NCBI GenBank assembly: GCA_963665095.1
Contig: OY762069.1
Location: 6,528,001 to 6,592,000 of the forward strand
DNA from: an uncultured Desulfobacter sp.
GTDB taxonomy: Bacteria > Desulfobacterota > Desulfobacteria > Desulfobacterales > Desulfobacteraceae
Length of the DNA: 64,000 bases
Reading direction: 5' to 3'
The translations under genes were made by a program, and so were the position numbers. Below are positions 28,090 through 35,259 of the stretch, piece after piece (positions within the stretch are counted from its first letter, which is position 1; each line of letters opens with the position of its first letter). A model generated the notes under the pieces. That model ran no database searches, was not told where the DNA came from, and worked only from the letters and a program-made list of their open reading frames with translations.

Positions 28090-29036
28090 GCGGATGCGCC
28101 CTCCCGTGTCAGTTCCTGGAAAATCTGTTCAAGGGCCTGGGACTGTCTTGACAGTTCTGTGATGATCCAGTCGGTTTGTTTGATGGACAGATAAAGATCC
28201 CGGCGAATGTCTCTGTCTTCGCTGCAGCAGATGTCAAAGCTGATACCTTCGTTTTCCGGGGTGTCCGCCACTGTGATGCTCAGATCATTGTCCAAAGCAC
28301 CAAGGCGGGCCAGGGCTGCCGGCGTGTCTGCGTTCATCAGGGTCAGCCGGACCACGGATTTGTGGCGGGCATGGGCTTTGAGATGGTCTGTGCTGTCGTC
28401 CGCCACTTTTTTGCCCTTGTTGATAATGGCGATGCGGTCACAGGTGGCTTCAGCCTCGGAAAGAATATGGGTGGAAAAGATAATGGTCTTTTCTTTACCA
28501 ATACTTTTGATAATATCCCGGATTTCTGCAATCTGGTTGGGATCCAGGCCCGAGGTGGGTTCGTCCAGGATCAGGATGTCCGGATCGGAGATCATGGCAT
28601 GGGCAAGGCCCACCCGCTGGCGAAGCCCCTTGGAGAGGTTGCCGATGGGCTTGGCCATGATGCCGGTCAGACCGCACAGCCTGGCAAGTTCCCTGAACCG
28701 GGTCTGTCTGGCATCCGGGTCATTGATCCCCTTGAGCCTGGCCACATAGTCCAGATAATCAAAGACCAGCATATTGTGGTACAAGGGGGCTGACTCCGGC
28801 AGATATCCCATCATGGATTTTATTTTCAGGGTGTCCCTGGGCATTTCAAGGTCATTGACCTTAATGGTGCCGGATGTGGGGGCAAAAAAGCCTGTGAGCA
28901 TTCGCAGGGTAGTTGTTTTTCCTGCGCCGTTGGGGCCGAGAAGGCCAAGTATCTGGCCGGGTTCAATGGTGAGGCTGATGCCGTCAACCGCACAAAAGTC
29001 ACCGTAATACTTGGTCAGGTTCTGAACATCAATCAA
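28086..29036 (-). CDS. GldA-like ABC transporter ATP-binding protein
   Basis: GPNGAGKT, LSKGLRQRVG, LDEPTSGLDP, STHIL. Confidence 0.95.
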   Translation of the reverse strand: MIDVQNLTKYYGDFCAVDGISLTIEPGQILGLLGPNGAGKTTTLRMLTGFFAPTSGTIKVNDLEMPRDTLKIKSMMGYLPESAPLYHNMLVFDYLDYVARLKGINDPDARQTRFRELARLCGLTGIMAKPIGNLSKGLRQRVGLAHAMISDPDILILDEPTSGLDPNQIAEIRDIIKSIGKEKTIIFSTHILSEAEATCDRIAIINKGKKVADDSTDHLKAHARHKSVVRLTLMNADTPAALARLGALDNDLSITVADTPENEGISFDICCSEDRDIRRDLYLSIKQTDWIITELSRQSQALEQIFQELTREGASA

Positions 29037-29045
29037 TGTCTTCTC

Positions 29046-29621
29046 CTAAAAGTCTTCAAGTACTTTGCTTTTATCAAGGAACGCATCCACGTCCCCTGCA
29101 GTTTTTTTCATTGTTTCCAACAGTTTTTCAAGATGCCGGCAAAAAGGATCGTCCGCTCCCAGTGTTTGAACCGATGTGCGGTACAGCGACAGAATGCTGC
29201 CGAACCGCTTCTTCATTTCAATGGCCAGCTTTTTGCGTTCTTCATGCCTGATTTTTTCGGACTGGATAACGGATTCCAGTTTTTTGATAGAGTACTCAAC
29301 CAGCGCATCCCGGGGCATGTTATAGGTTTCCGAGATGGCCGTCAATGCCTCAATGGTCCTGCGGCTCAGAACAAAGGTTTTCTGTTTTCTGGGCAGCTGC
29401 TTGAACTGGCGTATCCGGATGGACTGGGCCAGCTGGTCCAGGGCGGAATGGTCCTCAATAATGTGGTCAAACAAAGATTTCTGTTTGATCCCCATGTGGA
29501 CCGCCACAAGGCCGATGGCATCAATGGCCTTCTGGGAGAGTTTAAATGTTGCTCTGACCGATTGCTTCCCCCTTAGATCGAACATGGAAAGCCCGTCAAG
29601 GGGATCATTGGGTTCCGACAT
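29046..29621 (-). CDS. Hypothetical protein with two tandem ribbon-helix-helix-like repeats
   Basis: SVRATFKLSQKAIDAI...KQKSLFDHII and RKQKTFVLSRRTIEAL...PRDALVEYSI share the RHH pattern; 9 bp upstream of the ABC operon. Confidence 0.65.
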   Translation of the reverse strand: MSEPNDPLDGLSMFDLRGKQSVRATFKLSQKAIDAIGLVAVHMGIKQKSLFDHIIEDHSALDQLAQSIRIRQFKQLPRKQKTFVLSRRTIEALTAISETYNMPRDALVEYSIKKLESVIQSEKIRHEERKKLAIEMKKRFGSILSLYRTSVQTLGADDPFCRHLEKLLETMKKTAGDVDAFLDKSKVLEDF

Positions 29622-29800
29622 GCTTTCTGCCTTTCAGATCGCGGTATTATTGCTGTGCTGCGATCCGGAAAAGTAATGTATATTTATTGTGACCGGGTAT
29701 GTTAGCCCAAATATTTGGGGGGATCAATATTAAATAAAAGGATGATCAAAATGTAATTTAGTGTCTGATGATGCATATGATTTCAGGGGATTGACAGCTC

Positions 29801-30073
29801 CTAACGTTGCCCTGTTACAATCGTTCCCCACTGAGCGTCCTGAAGTTCTTCCACTAATTCGAAACCGGATTTTTTATAAAGGTGTCTTGCCGCCTCCAAC
29901 CCCTTAAATGTCCACAGGTACACTCTTTCAAAGGCCATTTCATTACAAAAATCAATAGCACAGCTCATCAGGTTGTTACCGGCTCCGCCGCCTATGGCTT
30001 TGTCAGAAACAATAAACCAGCGAAGATGGGCTGTGTTTAATTCTTCTGAAGAACCGTCAATGGCGATTGACCC
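29801..30073 (-). pseudogene. C-terminal fragment of a GNAT acetyltransferase (MarR-GNAT type)
   Basis: Manual translation GSIAIDG...AHLRWFIVS...GGGAG...VYLWTFKGLEAARHLYKKSGF...QWG; the N-terminal half is missing and an in-frame stop precedes it. Confidence 0.75.
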
Positions 30074-30247
30074 TTATTGCCAATTTGTTTGATCTGTCAT
30101 ACCCCTAATCCGGCATGATATTAGGGTGTCTGATCAGCTTTGTTCGGACAAAAACTGAGACACTTCACAGGTGGCAACAAAGGACCGATAATCGTAATTA
30201 TTTATAAAACCGTTTCAAACGGATGTGGGGTCGTGACCCGCAATAAC

Positions 30248-31546
30248 CTAATAGCGTGTTGGTTCGGACGGGAGTCGGAGAGTTATAAAATCTCGAAACT
30301 CTCCAGAGATCCGGTCATCTTCTGATAAGTTGGTCCAAAAGACTCGCCCCATGTCAGAAACCTCTTCAGAAAAATTTTCCACCGATTGAGTCACTTCAAA
30401 CGGTAGAACCTCACCATTTTTCGGAGCGAACTGCATAGAACACATATCATAGACAGGCAACAGGGAAAAATTTTCGTTTCCCATGGAAAAACTTAAATTT
30501 CCTAGGTGCATGTCGCTGTTATGAATAACTTCTCCGAATTGCTGTAACATCTTAACATTGTTTAATGCCTGTTCATCAGCAAGGCCCAAACGGAATAATT
30601 CAGCGACGACGCTTGTCCAATTGTTGCCATATCCGACAAACTCGCGGTCTAAAACTTCCAATGAGAACATAGAACTGCGGCCGAATTCTCCAACTCTGTC
30701 AAAACGTTCGAATTCAAGAAACAAACGTCCTTCCAAATCATAAATATTCGGCACAACCGCAGGGTACCCATGCTCAACTAAAACCCGTGATGCATGATAC
30801 TCTGTATACAGGATATCACGCCATCGAACTGCAACTTCATTCTCTCCCTTAGGCGAGAATTTAACGATAACATGGGCATTAAGGTCTTTGTTGAAGGCCG
30901 TAAATTTAGCTTGTTCTCCACCGGCAGATGATCCCGGGGGATTTCCTTTTAACACAGACAACGCAAGATCCGGGTAATCGGATTTTGAGACGGGAAAGGC
31001 CTTTTGATGAATTCGCATCAAACTGGGCTCCCCGAAAACTAAGTTCCCGGGTAAATCATCTCCTTTGGAAATTAAATATCTACCTATATGATCGGTATTC
31101 CACGCTTTTGGATTGGCAGGAAAGTCTTTAAGCTGTTCTGCTATCTTTTTGGCTATTTGCCTCCCGATAAACCCTTGAGGCCTCATATCGTATAGGAAAT
31201 ATGGAAGATCTTCAAATAACCCGGTGCCATCATATCCAAACAAAACAGGGGGAAAGTCATCTGTTTCAGGCTCTATGAAAAAACCCTCACAATTTAATGG
31301 GCGAACATCTGCAATTTTAGAACATGCTCCGGCAGAATCTGTAATTCCCAAAGGGATTCGATCTCCCATACCAAAGGCATTGCAGGTCGCAGCGTATCGA
31401 ACTGTCCGGCCATCTCGAACCTGTACTATTGTATCCCCGGCTTCTTTAATCTGCCTGGATACAGTGCTTTGACTTTGCCCCGTTGCGGCCTGAATTTCTT
31501 TTGATGTTGAAGGACCACGTCTCAAATAATCAACAATCGATAACAT
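30248..31546 (-). CDS. yjjJ: HipA-family Ser/Thr kinase toxin, YjjJ type, with N-terminal HTH
   Basis: HTH (SQSTVSR), DMRPQGFIGR, SSAGGEQAKF, VKFS, RFDR, NSDMHLGN, PVYDM. Confidence 0.88.
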   Translation of the reverse strand: MLSIVDYLRRGPSTSKEIQAATGQSQSTVSRQIKEAGDTIVQVRDGRTVRYAATCNAFGMGDRIPLGITDSAGACSKIADVRPLNCEGFFIEPETDDFPPVLFGYDGTGLFEDLPYFLYDMRPQGFIGRQIAKKIAEQLKDFPANPKAWNTDHIGRYLISKGDDLPGNLVFGEPSLMRIHQKAFPVSKSDYPDLALSVLKGNPPGSSAGGEQAKFTAFNKDLNAHVIVKFSPKGENEVAVRWRDILYTEYHASRVLVEHGYPAVVPNIYDLEGRLFLEFERFDRVGEFGRSSMFSLEVLDREFVGYGNNWTSVVAELFRLGLADEQALNNVKMLQQFGEVIHNSDMHLGNLSFSMGNENFSLLPVYDMCSMQFAPKNGEVLPFEVTQSVENFSEEVSDMGRVFWTNLSEDDRISGEFRDFITLRLPSEPTRY

Positions 31547-31660
31547 AACGCACCTTATTGGTGTAAATAACGACTTATTTAATGAATAATATTATATTAT
31601 TAAATTCCGATTAATTTTAAATATATTATGTCACTAAATAACATGTATGAAAATAAAATT

Positions 31661-31801
31661 ATGAATTACTACGGTCACTACTATAAGTCAGCTTTATATC
31701 CGACCCTGAGATGCCTGGACCGTCGCCTTGTAATGTGCGGCAACGCACGCAAAAAGTACTGGCACATGAGCAAAATGAAGTGGGTGGCCATTGCCATGCC
31801 T
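31661..31801 (+). mobile_element. Group II intron-encoded protein (domain X / C-terminal) remnant
   Basis: NYYGHYYKSALYPTLRCLDRRLV resembles maturase domain X (GWxNYY...); NARKKYWHMSK resembles the RKxYW IEP C-terminal motif. Confidence 0.55.
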
Positions 31802-31856
31802 ATAGAATGTAATACCAATATAGTATTATTTTGAATCCGTGCAACGATTTTTTTGA

Positions 31857-31985
31857 AGTGAACGGGGAGTTGAGGGGCCAGGCTTTTTAAACCCGAGAAG
31901 CTCCAATAAAAGTTTAAATTTTCCTGAACCAGGGACTCCCGAAAAGCCGCTATCCCCCGGGTCGGCCTGCAGCGGATTGTTTTTG
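31857..31985 (-). mobile_element. Integron attC recombination site
   Basis: Directly after the yoeB stop: R'' CAAAAAC, 5-bp spacer, L'' GCTGCAGG ... L' CCTCAAC, 5-bp spacer, R' GTTCACT. L boxes pair with one extrahelical base; 129 bp. Confidence 0.75.
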
Positions 31986-32249
31986 TCATTCATAATGTGT
32001 CCACATACGAAGGATTTTCACAATTTTATCAGCATCTATAATTTGATATACGATTCTATGTTGAATATTTAATCTTCTTGAATATGCACCAGATAGATCC
32101 CCTATGAGTTTTTCATAAGGCGGTGGAGTTTGATATGGGTTTTTCTTAAAAATCTCTATGAGTCCTATTGCTTTTAACTTCAACCCTGATGAAGAAAGCT
32201 TCTTCGCATCCTTCTGCGCTTGTTTTGTGTAAACAACCTTCCAAATCAC
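31986..32249 (-). CDS. yoeB: Txe/YoeB family mRNA interferase toxin
   Basis: PPYEKLIGDLSGAYSRRLNIQHRIVY...RMWTHYE. Confidence 0.95.
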   Translation of the reverse strand: MIWKVVYTKQAQKDAKKLSSSGLKLKAIGLIEIFKKNPYQTPPPYEKLIGDLSGAYSRRLNIQHRIVYQIIDADKIVKILRMWTHYE

Positions 32250-32488
32250 CAGTCAAGATCCTCGCTGCATTCTTCTACTGGTGTTAACAGGCCTTCCTGT
32301 ATGGATTCTCGCATTCCCGGAATATTTAATAAAAACATTGTTTCTTGAATTGATTTCCAGTCTTCTTCAGAAAGAAGAACAGCATTCCCTCTTTTTCCTG
32401 TGATAATAATTGGTTCATGAGAAGATGATGTCTGATCGATAAGCCTATAAAGATTGGAACGGGCCTCTGTGGCAGATAATATTGTCAT
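32246..32488 (-). CDS. yefM: Phd/YefM family antitoxin
   Basis: SATEARSNLYRLID, PIIITGKRGNAVLLSEEDW..IQET; 4-bp overlap with the toxin. Confidence 0.95.
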   Translation of the reverse strand: MTILSATEARSNLYRLIDQTSSSHEPIIITGKRGNAVLLSEEDWKSIQETMFLLNIPGMRESIQEGLLTPVEECSEDLDW

Positions 32489-32517
32489 ATGTCCTCCTTG
32501 AATTTTAATTTACATAA

Positions 32518-32546
32518 ATGGTACGCCATGACGTACGCATTGTCAA
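32518..32546 (-). promoter_or_regulatory. Sigma70 promoter of yefM-yoeB with overlapping GTAC palindromic operator
   Basis: TTGACA-17 bp-TACCAT on the minus strand; inverted repeat GTACG-N6-CGTAC spans the spacer and -10. Confidence 0.8.
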
Positions 32547-32821
32547 GGTGGTGTTTTGAGACAAAAATGAAATAGGCAGAATGGGCCAATATTGTCCATG
32601 AAGGAGCGCATTGGAGATAAACACTCCCCCTCCCCTCGAAAAATTCAACTGTAAATTTTATCCATTTGAAATTGATATCAGTTTGCAGGCGAGTTGCTTA
32701 AGGATTCCTTCTTGAATCTTTACCCCCGGTAATTTATAACCGCAGCTATGAACGGCGGGTATCTGGTTCTTGAATAAAATCGGGCACCCAAAGCCGTTTG
32801 CTTTGAAAACTATTTTAAAAT

Positions 32822-33379
32822 ATGGATAGAGCAGCAATGATGTCGGACTGTATCAGAAAAGTATTGCCCAATGTAAAGGATTTTAAACGCTTCTGGAAAG
32901 ACCGGGGACCGTTTAAATATGCGTTGACAAGTAAGGAATATCCCCCCGTTCTGCTGGAACCGGAAGAGTGGATATTCGGCAATGACAGCGTTGAGGTTTT
33001 AAAGGAGCTGATGCAGTTTTCCCGTGATAAACTCTGCTTTGCCAAAGCCCCGTTCAACCCGGATAATAAGACGATTCTGCGCCCGGATGACATCTGTGCC
33101 TGGAAGATTGTTCATTTTCCGGAATCATGGAATGCCATGGTGTGTGATGCGTTTCTGCCCGAGGGACAGCTCACCCGGGCTGTGGCGGATGAATGCCGGG
33201 CACTGGGGCTTGATGAGGATAAAGCCGGCATTGAACAGGCTTTCTTCAGCCTGCTGGAAAGGGAGCTTGACCGCATGGGATATGTGTGGCTGTTTCCCAG
33301 GAAGGGTGCGAAATCGGCTGCCATTGCCCCGTATCTGGCTGAGTGGACAAAGGACGAGGAAGAAGCCGGCCTTATTTAG
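32822..33379 (+). CDS. Hypothetical protein
   Basis: 185-aa ORF with protein-like composition and an upstream TTGAAT-17-TATAAC promoter (32712-32740); no family recognised. Confidence 0.7.
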   Translation: MDRAAMMSDCIRKVLPNVKDFKRFWKDRGPFKYALTSKEYPPVLLEPEEWIFGNDSVEVLKELMQFSRDKLCFAKAPFNPDNKTILRPDDICAWKIVHFPESWNAMVCDAFLPEGQLTRAVADECRALGLDEDKAGIEQAFFSLLERELDRMGYVWLFPRKGAKSAAIAPYLAEWTKDEEEAGLI

Positions 33380-33544
33380 TGTTTGGACGAAAAGTTACCC
33401 ACCTGCGGCGTTGCTGCACAAACCTTAAATCCTCACGTACTGAAGTACGCTCCGGTTTAAGCTTTGCTTGCGCCTTGCATCTGGGCAACTTTTCGCCCAA
33501 ACACCGTTACAGAGCCCAAGTTTGGGTTTTTTATTCAGGCACTA
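33377..33544. repeat. Long palindromic MITE/REP-like element
   Basis: GTGTTTGGACGAAAAGTTACCC (33379) pairs with GGGCAACTTTTCGCCCAAACAC (ends 33504), apex CGTAC-TGAA-GTACG; imperfect outer TIR TAGTGTTTGGA / TTCAGGCACTA. Confidence 0.7.
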
Positions 33545-33549
33545 TTTAA

Positions 33550-35259
33550 CTATTTAGTAGTTAGGAGTGATTTTATCTGGCTGGGTTTTGCCGGGAATTC
33601 CCAGAATCCGTTGATGCCTGATTTTTCAAACAGCGCGCTTAGTTGTATGCGGTCCATGTGTCGCTGCAAAGAGGACACAATGATGGGCACCTCCTGGGCG
33701 GAATAAAGTTCTCTTATCTCCTGGGCCAGAGTCATCACTGTCATCTGTTCAACGACAAAATCTGTGATAATGGCGGCAGGTTTTTTTTCTGAAATGAACT
33801 CAAACGCCTCCTGGGGACTGGTAAATGTCCGGGCTGTGGAACCGCAGTTATGAATCAGCCTGGCATTGACATCCAGAAAGGTGGTGGACGGGTGAATTAC
33901 CACTATGACAGGTCTGTGTTCCTTGTCTCTTTCCTCTTTGAGCCGGATGAATTTTTTTGCTGTGGCGGTGCGGTTCCTTTTTTCAAGAAGACGGATCCAG
34001 GTGTCAATAACGCTGACCGGGGCTGAGTTATGCAGGTAGTTTGAGCAGATATATGTAAATGTGTCCGAGGTCATCAGCGCTTCAATCAGATGGGTTGCAC
34101 CGGCATCCAGGATGGTGGTGGCCAGCGCTTCGCCGGATTTGGTGCCGGATTCGATTCTTTTTTTGATTTCTGCCACAATATAGTCTGAGCAGTGCCTGTC
34201 CAGGGCTTTAATGGCGCCCATGCCAACATATATCACCGGATCTGTGGCTGCTTTTACAATGGGGGCGGTGGATTCAAATTCAGGATAATGGGACAAGGCG
34301 GTGTACAGGGAAAATCGTACCAGATTGTCAAGATTTGTCTGCTCGGCAAGGGTGAGAAGATCGCCTATGGAATCGTGGGGGATGGTGCATGCCGTAAGGC
34401 GCAAAAGGTTTACCAGAAGGTCAGGCTCATCGTTGTCCAGGTTGTCGTGAAGGGCTGATGCCACTTCGTCGCCTCTGGTCCTGAAGTAGGCCAGGGCCTG
34501 AAATCGCTCTTCCATGCTGGGAGATGCCAGACGCCAGGTATTGGCCTCCAGCGGCGTCATGTCTGCCAGGGACGGTCTGGTTTTGGTCTCTGGTTTTGCC
34601 TTGGGTGCAGGCGCGGCCTTGGGTTTGGCTGCGGGTCTTGGTTTTGGAGGTGCCTTTGGTGCTTTGGGCACAGGTTGCGTCTTTTTTTTCCCTTGAAGAA
34701 ATGCCAGGGAATCCAGAATGTCCTGGCCGCACTTATCTGTCTGGGCGATCTGTTCCAGCCGCTGAACGGCTTTATCTGTGCCAATGCGCTCCAGTGCAGT
34801 GACAGCGGCCTTGCGAAGTTCCGGATCACCATAAAAAACAAATTCTGCCAGATCATCAATGAGAAATTCGGTACCAAGGCGGCCGGCAGCCCTGAAAATG
34901 TCTTCAATCAGATCCCGGTGGGTTTCCTTGCCCAGTATGTGTCTGATTAGCGGGGCAATCGGTCCGGGATGGTCCGGGTCGGTGTGATTCAGCAGGATCA
35001 GGGCAAATTTGAAATTAATATGGGCTCTGTCCATTGCCAGCTGATACAGGCGCGGCTGCAGCGGATGGGCAGGCCCCATGGTGTTCATCAGAAAGGAGAG
35101 AATATCATAGGCAGTATCATCCGGTGACAGGGCCAATCGTTCGATCACCGCCTGCTGGTCTGTTTCATTAAGGCTTAAAATTTTAATCAGGGTATCACGT
35201 GCCCCCTCAATGTCGCCGGTTTTAATGATTTTTTCAAATTCCGGAATAAATTCCGCCAT
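33550..35259 (-). CDS. HEAT-repeat protein with C-terminal atypical receiver domain
   Basis: HEAT-like LRKAAVTALERIG, P/K/A-rich linker, REC-like C-terminus (KPAAIITD...VPIIVSS). Confidence 0.75.
   Translation of the reverse strand: MAEFIPEFEKIIKTGDIEGARDTLIKILSLNETDQQAVIERLALSPDDTAYDILSFLMNTMGPAHPLQPRLYQLAMDRAHINFKFALILLNHTDPDHPGPIAPLIRHILGKETHRDLIEDIFRAAGRLGTEFLIDDLAEFVFYGDPELRKAAVTALERIGTDKAVQRLEQIAQTDKCGQDILDSLAFLQGKKKTQPVPKAPKAPPKPRPAAKPKAAPAPKAKPETKTRPSLADMTPLEANTWRLASPSMEERFQALAYFRTRGDEVASALHDNLDNDEPDLLVNLLRLTACTIPHDSIGDLLTLAEQTNLDNLVRFSLYTALSHYPEFESTAPIVKAATDPVIYVGMGAIKALDRHCSDYIVAEIKKRIESGTKSGEALATTILDAGATHLIEALMTSDTFTYICSNYLHNSAPVSVIDTWIRLLEKRNRTATAKKFIRLKEERDKEHRPVIVVIHPSTTFLDVNARLIHNCGSTARTFTSPQEAFEFISEKKPAAIITDFVVEQMTVMTLAQEIRELYSAQEVPIIVSSLQRHMDRIQLSALFEKSGINGFWEFPAKPSQIKSLLTTK

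Follow-up and report, generated by a model that had tools for sequence, protein, structure and literature searches.

Integron cassettes without a neighboring integrase gene have been described in several forms, and CALINs, SALINs, insertions at attG sites and toxin-antitoxin (TA) cassettes are all known already. The locus described here resembles SALINs and CALINs, as far as the accessible text of their descriptions goes, in that one attC with its cassette lies away from intI and IntI is encoded elsewhere (PMC4889954; bioRxiv 10.1101/2022.09.11.507474). In the available portions of Cury et al. (PMC4889954), 95% of CALINs are away from a recognisable intI pseudogene, half are in IntI-encoding genomes, and attI is said to be unidentified for most integrons and so not searchable. 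The locus also resembles the truncated-attI class 1 heads of Tn1331 and Tn1404, in which a cassette lies behind a cut attI without an adjacent intI; according to the same excerpt, the structures of this class also include genes between two attI copies (PMC12901181). Two further relatives are the TA cassettes in Vibrio cholerae's sedentary chromosomal integron, each a type II pair that has its own promoter and is lethal if lost (PMC13108822, in part), and the CALINs of Xanthomonas at conserved non-ilvD loci, which are integrase-less and keep fixed loci across species, intI lying at a single different locus (bioRxiv 10.1101/2025.06.18.660453, in part).

The window analyzed here is a stretch of 64,000 nucleotides from the genome of an uncultured Desulfobacter sp. 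(G000:6528001-6592000). It carries a yefM-yoeB cassette at 31857..32567, and we consider it likely, with good confidence, that a distant IntI loaded this cassette into a satellite attI lacking an integrase gene, and that deletions then eroded the site. The locus is read as an eroded, probably locked array because it has an attI half-site, a chimeric attC and scraps of cassettes and introns, and because no empty site was found. The features are listed in Table 1.

Table 1. Features of the yefM-yoeB locus, in window coordinates.
Feature	Position	Strand	Remarks
GNAT acetyltransferase remnant, 5' end missing	29804..30073	-	PF00583 over cut-off; in-frame stop just upstream
Intron fragment forming the last ~11 codons of yjjJ	30282-30220		Differs from the intron piece at 31734..31801; matches G000:337669-337731
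yjjJ, HipA-family gene	30248..31546	-	NF007297 over cut-off
Group II intron maturase 3' end, 68-bp piece	31734..31801	+	97% to G000:3915832 and to many array copies
5' stub of a second TA cassette, abrB/mazE-vapC (PIN)	31803..31862	-	Promoter and operator only
Chimeric attC	31857..31985	-	Left arm ~31985-31942 subtype A; remainder ~31950-31857 subtype B
R' box	31863-31857	-	GTTCACT
L' box	31875-31869	-	
L'' box	31973-31966	-	
R'' box	31985-31979	-	CAAAAAC
yoeB toxin gene	31986..32249	-	87 aa; intact; overlaps yefM stop; TIGR02116 92.4 bits; Pfam
yefM antitoxin gene	32246..32488	-	80 aa; intact; TIGR01552 and PF02604 over cut-off
Predicted TA promoter	32518..32546	-	TTGACA-17-TACCAT; 10/12 consensus match
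Cassette 5' end, TTTTTGTC	32560..32567	-	Complementary to own R'', 8/8 bases in G000
Right half of genus attI	32568..32595	-	28 of ~55 bp; 26/28 to the genome's two other attI arms
L-box-like motif in attI half	32577-32571	-	GCCTATT
Promoter-like module, candidate Pc	32610..32667	-	Weak match, E 0.041, best in the 64-kb window
Palindromic repeat, ~125 bp	33377-33505		Many genome copies; REP- or MITE-like

The yefM-yoeB cassette and its attC site

The two genes have the layout of a type II TA system, in which the gene for a Phd/YefM antitoxin precedes the gene for a YoeB/Txe toxin and overlaps it, and YoeB chains in the PDB match the yoeB product (E 1.4e-14). Compared with G017, yefM shows 19 synonymous and 2 non-synonymous codon changes and yoeB shows 10 synonymous and 7 non-synonymous changes; the comparison with relatives leaves out the yoeB row of L016, which is at a contig end. 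Judged from these codons, the pair is apparently under purifying selection. The predicted promoter is overlapped by a predicted YefM operator, which consists of two GTAC-core palindromes 12 bp apart with hexamers that differ from TGTACA at 2 of 6 positions. The E. coli yefM-yoeB operator is described, in the text available, as paired palindromes at 12 bp (PMC1802561). The reading of the locus as a TA cassette from an integron, equipped with its own promoter, is supported. A 102-aa ORF (31681-31989) crosses attC, the cassette stub and the intron piece, and was treated as spurious.

An integron cassette consists of one or more genes followed by an attC with R''-L''-L'-R' boxes and AAC/GTT cores, and this order is found here. 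R'' comes right after the yoeB stop, a 5-nt spacer separates the R and L boxes on each side, attC measures 129 bp in all, and 705 bp lie between the cassette ends. The box architecture, spacers and coordinates are all present in the sequence as the sequence-only reading gave them. The resemblance goes beyond chance, with 25 related sites in 8 clusters retrieved from G000 by iterative nhmmer seeded with the window attC, including 9 from the intI-adjacent array. A search of 29000-34000 of the window against Rfam gave no match, the Rfam set being one without an attC model. At the other end of the cassette, the chance expectation of an 8-mer complement like that of the 5' end is 0.006 per 100 bp. 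The two ends co-vary in relatives' copies of the cassette, which start with G/TTCTGTC in three of eight and end with GACAGAA(C) in three of eight, so the boundary drawn from the sequence alone is about right. It is not exact, as had been claimed. At 32567 an A, not a G, precedes the T-run, and the run is six in three of the four other studies (six in X6, X7 and X11; five in G000 and run X3). Since the length of the T-run differs between strains, the exact junction cannot be fixed.

Alignments place a switch from subtype A to subtype B of attC inside a shared 9-bp motif (31950-31942). A set of 54 attC sites was parsed from G000 and relatives' loci, with matches of unparsable boxes left out. Both arms are of subtype B in 34 of them and of subtype A in 12, seven have other arm types, and the window attC is the sole site with an A left arm and a B right arm. 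Its arm duplex (-7.4 kcal/mol) is the weakest of the 54 (mean -17.8, sd 2.8; weakest other -9.6). The L boxes form six Watson-Crick pairs and one G-T pair, and the stem inside them is missing. The L-box pairing probability is 0.18, the second lowest, compared to a median of 0.995 in the 53 others. An intact subtype-A attC in G015 (G015:1343090-1343220) shares 40/43 identity with the window left arm and has a duplex of -17.7. Folding of the bottom strand, a check suggested along with the sequence-only reading, gave no attC hairpin (z +0.60), and the cassette can no longer be called complete. Whole-site MFE z is a poor discriminator, with several sister attC sites also near 0, and the arm-pairing measures were therefore used. 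The simplest reading of the aligned arms is that the chimera would represent a deletion between two attC repeats. In run X7, a further 3 nt are missing in the R' box (window 31858-31860), indicating further attC decay in that strain.

Close copies of the TA cassette in relatives also lack attC, with no match to the family HMM at five of five wider loci. At L010 (G017:C1:3677479-3678065), the same TA cassette has perfect GTTCTGTC and GACAGAAC ends and no attC body. No attC was found upstream of it, and it adjoins a reverse-transcriptase-like ORF. As a candidate for genuine off-target insertion, L010 may be the better one.

Flanks of the cassette

The DNA directly upstream of the cassette is the right half of an attI that is found across the genus and that measures ~55 bp in full, with a long inverted repeat. 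Homology and the L-box-like motif are present at the window site. The left half of the inverted repeat and the CTG before TT, with the core G, are absent, and the sequence reads CA followed by the T-run, marking a remnant and not a full site. The other two matches to the 28 bp in G000 are located at 911656-911683, upstream of intI, and at 3892404-3892431, where a second array begins and the orphan attI (G000:3892434) is full. Across both strands of the 6.9 Mb, the next best score was 21/28, and the maximum in three shuffles was also 21. An attI HMM built without the window recovered the half-site with an E value of 7.5e-07 genome-wide. The site at 911686 is a true attI, because 126 bp separate its CTG/TT end from the start of intI and because the bases after its GTT show a 9-bp complement to the R'' of the first cassette's attC.

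The candidate Pc further upstream was identified using a promoter-module HMM trained on the DNA upstream of 14 orphan attI sites, with the attI core itself left out. Promoter-like modules without attI were also observed in G000:C1 at 374682, 570395, 733153, 5206242, 632232 and 5234124, and either are additional decayed platforms or belong to a widespread promoter type. In each of the four runs, the summed depth of the palindromic repeat at 33377-33505 was very high.

Downstream of attC, the stub of the abrB-vapC cassette is 93% identical over 68 nt to a cassette start located directly after attC in the intI array of G022, and 92% identical to G000:3914031. The stub and the intron piece are joined at a common TACATT. 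The ORF of the parent intron contains RVT_1 and GIIM, and the intron has group II domains from Rfam; by position and orientation, it is of the IIC-attC type, lying antisense to the cassettes in arrays. Group II introns of this type sit antisense in attC sites according to the accessible part of PMC7923331. The 3.9-Mb array of G000 has the same cassette and intron types 1.8 kb apart.

The yjjJ gene was considered as a cassette and rejected, with no attC behind it and with homologues in G016 and G022 located by an MFS-like gene without attC. A second, broken yjjJ 3' piece (277-bp, 88%) was observed at G000:C1:5997053-5997329.

One alternative origin is the insertion by IntI of a single circular TA cassette into a chance chromosomal site, that is, an attG-type SALIN. 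Such an insertion would fit the presence of only one full-length attC and the complementary cassette ends, and there are documented cases of both SALINs and attG insertions (bioRxiv 10.1101/2022.09.11.507474, in part). However, with an attI copy on the left and the start of another cassette on the right, the flanks do not make up a single host sequence. The G expected in a GWT attG core is absent from the junction, and the attC is chimeric. We consider this origin highly improbable, and the ectopic landing put forward in the sequence-only reading finds no support. The same flanks contradict the description of the cassette as solitary and agree with the other proposal of that reading, namely that the cassette is the last survivor of an eroded array. 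The suggestion that the TA pair may stabilise an adjacent island has little in its favor; the low-GC patch extends only ~2.9 kb and is itself decayed, containing two intron scraps, the GNAT remnant and yjjJ with a replaced C-terminus.

The same layout is present in contigs of all four runs, from four independent studies, with 0 to ~1% difference and with the attI junction bridged. An empty site joining about 32568 to 31862, as expected from a simple insertion, was found at none of 22 relative loci, and none of the four runs had a 31863/32568 joint. Likewise, no joint skipping the TA was found in the four contig sets, in which rare variants are dropped. In relatives, the interval between the conserved flanking genes, encoding 191 aa and 185 aa, ranges from 1.9 kb to >100 kb and holds unrelated genes in G017 and others. 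No attI was found within 1.5 kb upstream of the conserved 185-aa gene at the 22 loci (0/22), and since an intact ancestral state of the locus was unseen there, the block may have arrived already assembled.

Integrase and attI copies across the genus

As the sequence-only reading noted, the window has no integrase. Neither IntI-like sequence nor an intI remnant was detected in it by tblastn (best E 0.37) or blastn, and no intI adjoins attI at the locus as it does in a complete integron. The sole full intI of G000 is located at 910169-911113, and a broken intI-type gene lies at 3348-3355 kb. The IntI encoded at G000:C1:910169-911560 (L001:1501-2892, - strand) has 464 aa, of which ~150 N-terminal residues have no Pfam match; this extension is also aligned in many relatives. 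The closest IntI relatives are Desulfobacter and Desulfospira records (76-82%).

G000 contains three attI copies, with intI beside only one. A search with a 28-nt attI pattern retrieved 51 places, spread over 16 of the 25 genomes of the genus with 2 to 7 in each, and the reversed control retrieved none. Among the matches listed, and judged by score and position, no attI-bearing genome has more than one IntI of the cognate long type. Of the 50 distinct attI sites (one duplicate dropped), 6 have intI beside them. Two of 17 further sites lie by a full-length intI and one (G389) by a 5' half. Overall, 59 of 68 attI sites have no IntI match in the fetched flank. In G016, three attI copies and no full intI were found. 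G019 has seven attI copies, and an intI without its first 96 codons was observed there with no attI nearby (L101, G019:C1:4267142-4268245). The attI sequence is nearly genus-limited, as its patterns rarely match beyond the genus: a 34-nt pattern was found in 4 of 301 order-level genomes, the sole one outside the genus being beside intI, and a 22-nt pattern in 19 of 130 family genomes (3 of 17 genera). Not every attC cluster is a satellite: for five of the eight in G000, a search within 15 kb turned up no attI head (best E 0.74).

The GTT is in place at 37 of the 50 attI sites. Within 1.5 kb, an R''-type complement of at least 8 bp was found at 11 of these 37, compared to 0.8 expected by permutation. 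Seven of the 11 are among the 32 intI-less sites; chance may account for two of these seven, which are AT-rich. The lack of a complement at the other 26 sites is expected, because cassettes can be long or R'' broken. The 15 attC matches in 21 wider orphan loci are without exception downstream of attI and on its strand. At four orthologous intI-less loci (10 sites), identity is 0.82-1.0 in the core and 0.73-0.95 upstream, and similarity stops at GTT, with unrelated DNA beyond it in 8/8 pairs. The sole orthologous pair without GTT keeps the same downstream gene. At an ABC-permease locus, readable in 15 genomes, a full attI lies directly behind the gene in three genomes and behind an insertion in one, the left half of attI remains in one, and only the upstream module is present in four.

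These orphan sites bear on a second alternative, in which the window locus was a complete integron (intI, attI and array) that lost its integrase gene, and is an ordinary CALIN. Loss of intI is listed as an origin of CALINs in the portions of Cury et al. (PMC4889954) at hand, deletions clearly struck the window attI, and G000 has its broken intI-type gene at 3348-3355 kb. The G389 attI adjoins the truncated 5' half of an intI, so the ordinary route of intI loss does occur in this attI family. At the window, however, the IntI searches were negative, and the promoter region of the 185-aa gene reaches to ~110 bp from the attI half. In addition, the DNA before the attI half resembles the orphan-type module (E 0.041) and not an intI leader. 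Three genomes carry different cassettes at the ABC-permease locus, yet their gap from host gene to attI is the same, 250-260 bp, and leaves no room for intI. This alternative is judged unlikely for the window.

In a third alternative, homologous or illegitimate recombination brought in an attI-cassette block that had been built elsewhere, at a different locus or in a different genome; the orphan attI sites would be passive copies, and their content would change without IntI. A 409-bp promoter-attI-cassette block is 98% identical between the non-orthologous loci L088 (G018:C1:2354940) and L078 (G019:C1:6044099), and may, as a sequence match, be a hint of how attI copies spread. In G017, a 181-aa gene lies between two attI copies 801 bp apart (L086, G017:C1:2612543 and 2613344), the second without the core G, and the interval between the conserved genes flanking the window locus is highly variable. 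On the other hand, the end of similarity at GTT in all eight pairs from four orthologous loci is directly explained by site-specific capture. We regard movement of a block as quite improbable as the origin of the window locus. This alternative is partly compatible with the satellite-attI explanation and may account for attI spread.

Proposed history and comparison with described integrons

The preferred reading, loading of a satellite attI followed by erosion, can be laid out in several steps. IntI acting in trans would have loaded at least three cassettes: the TA cassette, one or more now lost, and the abrB-vapC cassette with its attC intron. Recombination between two attC sites in the shared 9-bp motif, where the junction is seen, probably removed the middle cassette or cassettes and left the chimera. 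A second deletion, whose junction lies at the 6-bp microhomology TACATT, may then have removed abrB-vapC, and further deletions presumably took the left half of attI with the core G. Erosion may have been helped by an excision-prone orientation, with the bottom strand on the predicted lagging-strand template; this placement is described as excision-prone in the available part of PMC8946536. Survival of the TA pair would be expected, as its loss leaves toxin without antitoxin, and its own promoter was kept too. Excision of TA cassettes kills cells (PMC13108822, in part).

The cassette is predicted to be near non-excisable, and the site is predicted to take no further cassettes, because upstream there is no core G and in attC there is no stem. 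These predictions use the recombination rules of IntI1, borrowed for the Desulfobacter integrase, and predicted folding. In the text available, recombination of attC with attI1 by IntI1 needs an identical first base in the partners (PMC2811028), and cassettes behind an upstream truncated attI are not excisable by IntI1 (PMC12901181).

In these bacteria, a distant IntI likely serves many integrase-less satellite arrays, its use in trans being what we infer from their distribution. More broadly, we lean toward a distributed integron, in which one IntI type would serve up to seven or more promoter-backed attI per chromosome at fixed, trans-loaded loci, with modules that spread without intI and die by loss of the core G or of a half-site. 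The window locus would be a dead one. The shared block of G018 and G019, the truncated intI of G389 and the five of eight G000 clusters without attI count against a model based purely on action in trans.

If the distributed integron is true, many CALINs and SALINs called relics of integrase loss or off-target insertions would be satellite capture platforms for which attI was never sought. The genus-specific attI makes such platforms countable; most copies are without intI, and some occupy one locus in several species, where the cassettes differ. Intact and decayed attI states can be aligned, and the view of one integrase with many attI platforms becomes directly testable. The cassette alone is ordinary, and its context illustrates a TA cassette turning into a fixed chromosomal gene pair.

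The window locus differs from each of its closest described relatives. A SALIN is defined, in the descriptions at hand, as having no other att site nearby (PMC4889954; bioRxiv 10.1101/2022.09.11.507474), whereas the window locus has an attI and a hybrid attC. The locus does not qualify as a CALIN either; one attC was detected, though it is built from two. In contrast to both, its attI head is found again at many places in the genomes of the genus. Class 1 truncated-attI heads belong to clinical transposons or plasmids and involve attI1 or attI2 (PMC12901181, in part), while the window site is chromosomal and genus-specific, and most of its sister copies are full length. The TA cassettes of Vibrio cholerae guard a large array by intI (PMC13108822, in part); at the window locus the TA pair is what is left of a lost array. 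In the part of the Xanthomonas CALIN study available, no attI is named (bioRxiv 10.1101/2025.06.18.660453), whereas in the present genus attI was found and compared. An attI without intI is not described in the available text of PMC9892861 and PMC9668308, and no report of many intI-less attI copies per chromosome was found in the literature, mostly papers accessible without subscription. The cassette flagged at the outset is thus a decayed case of a known kind, and what is new here is the proposed genus-wide satellite attI system.
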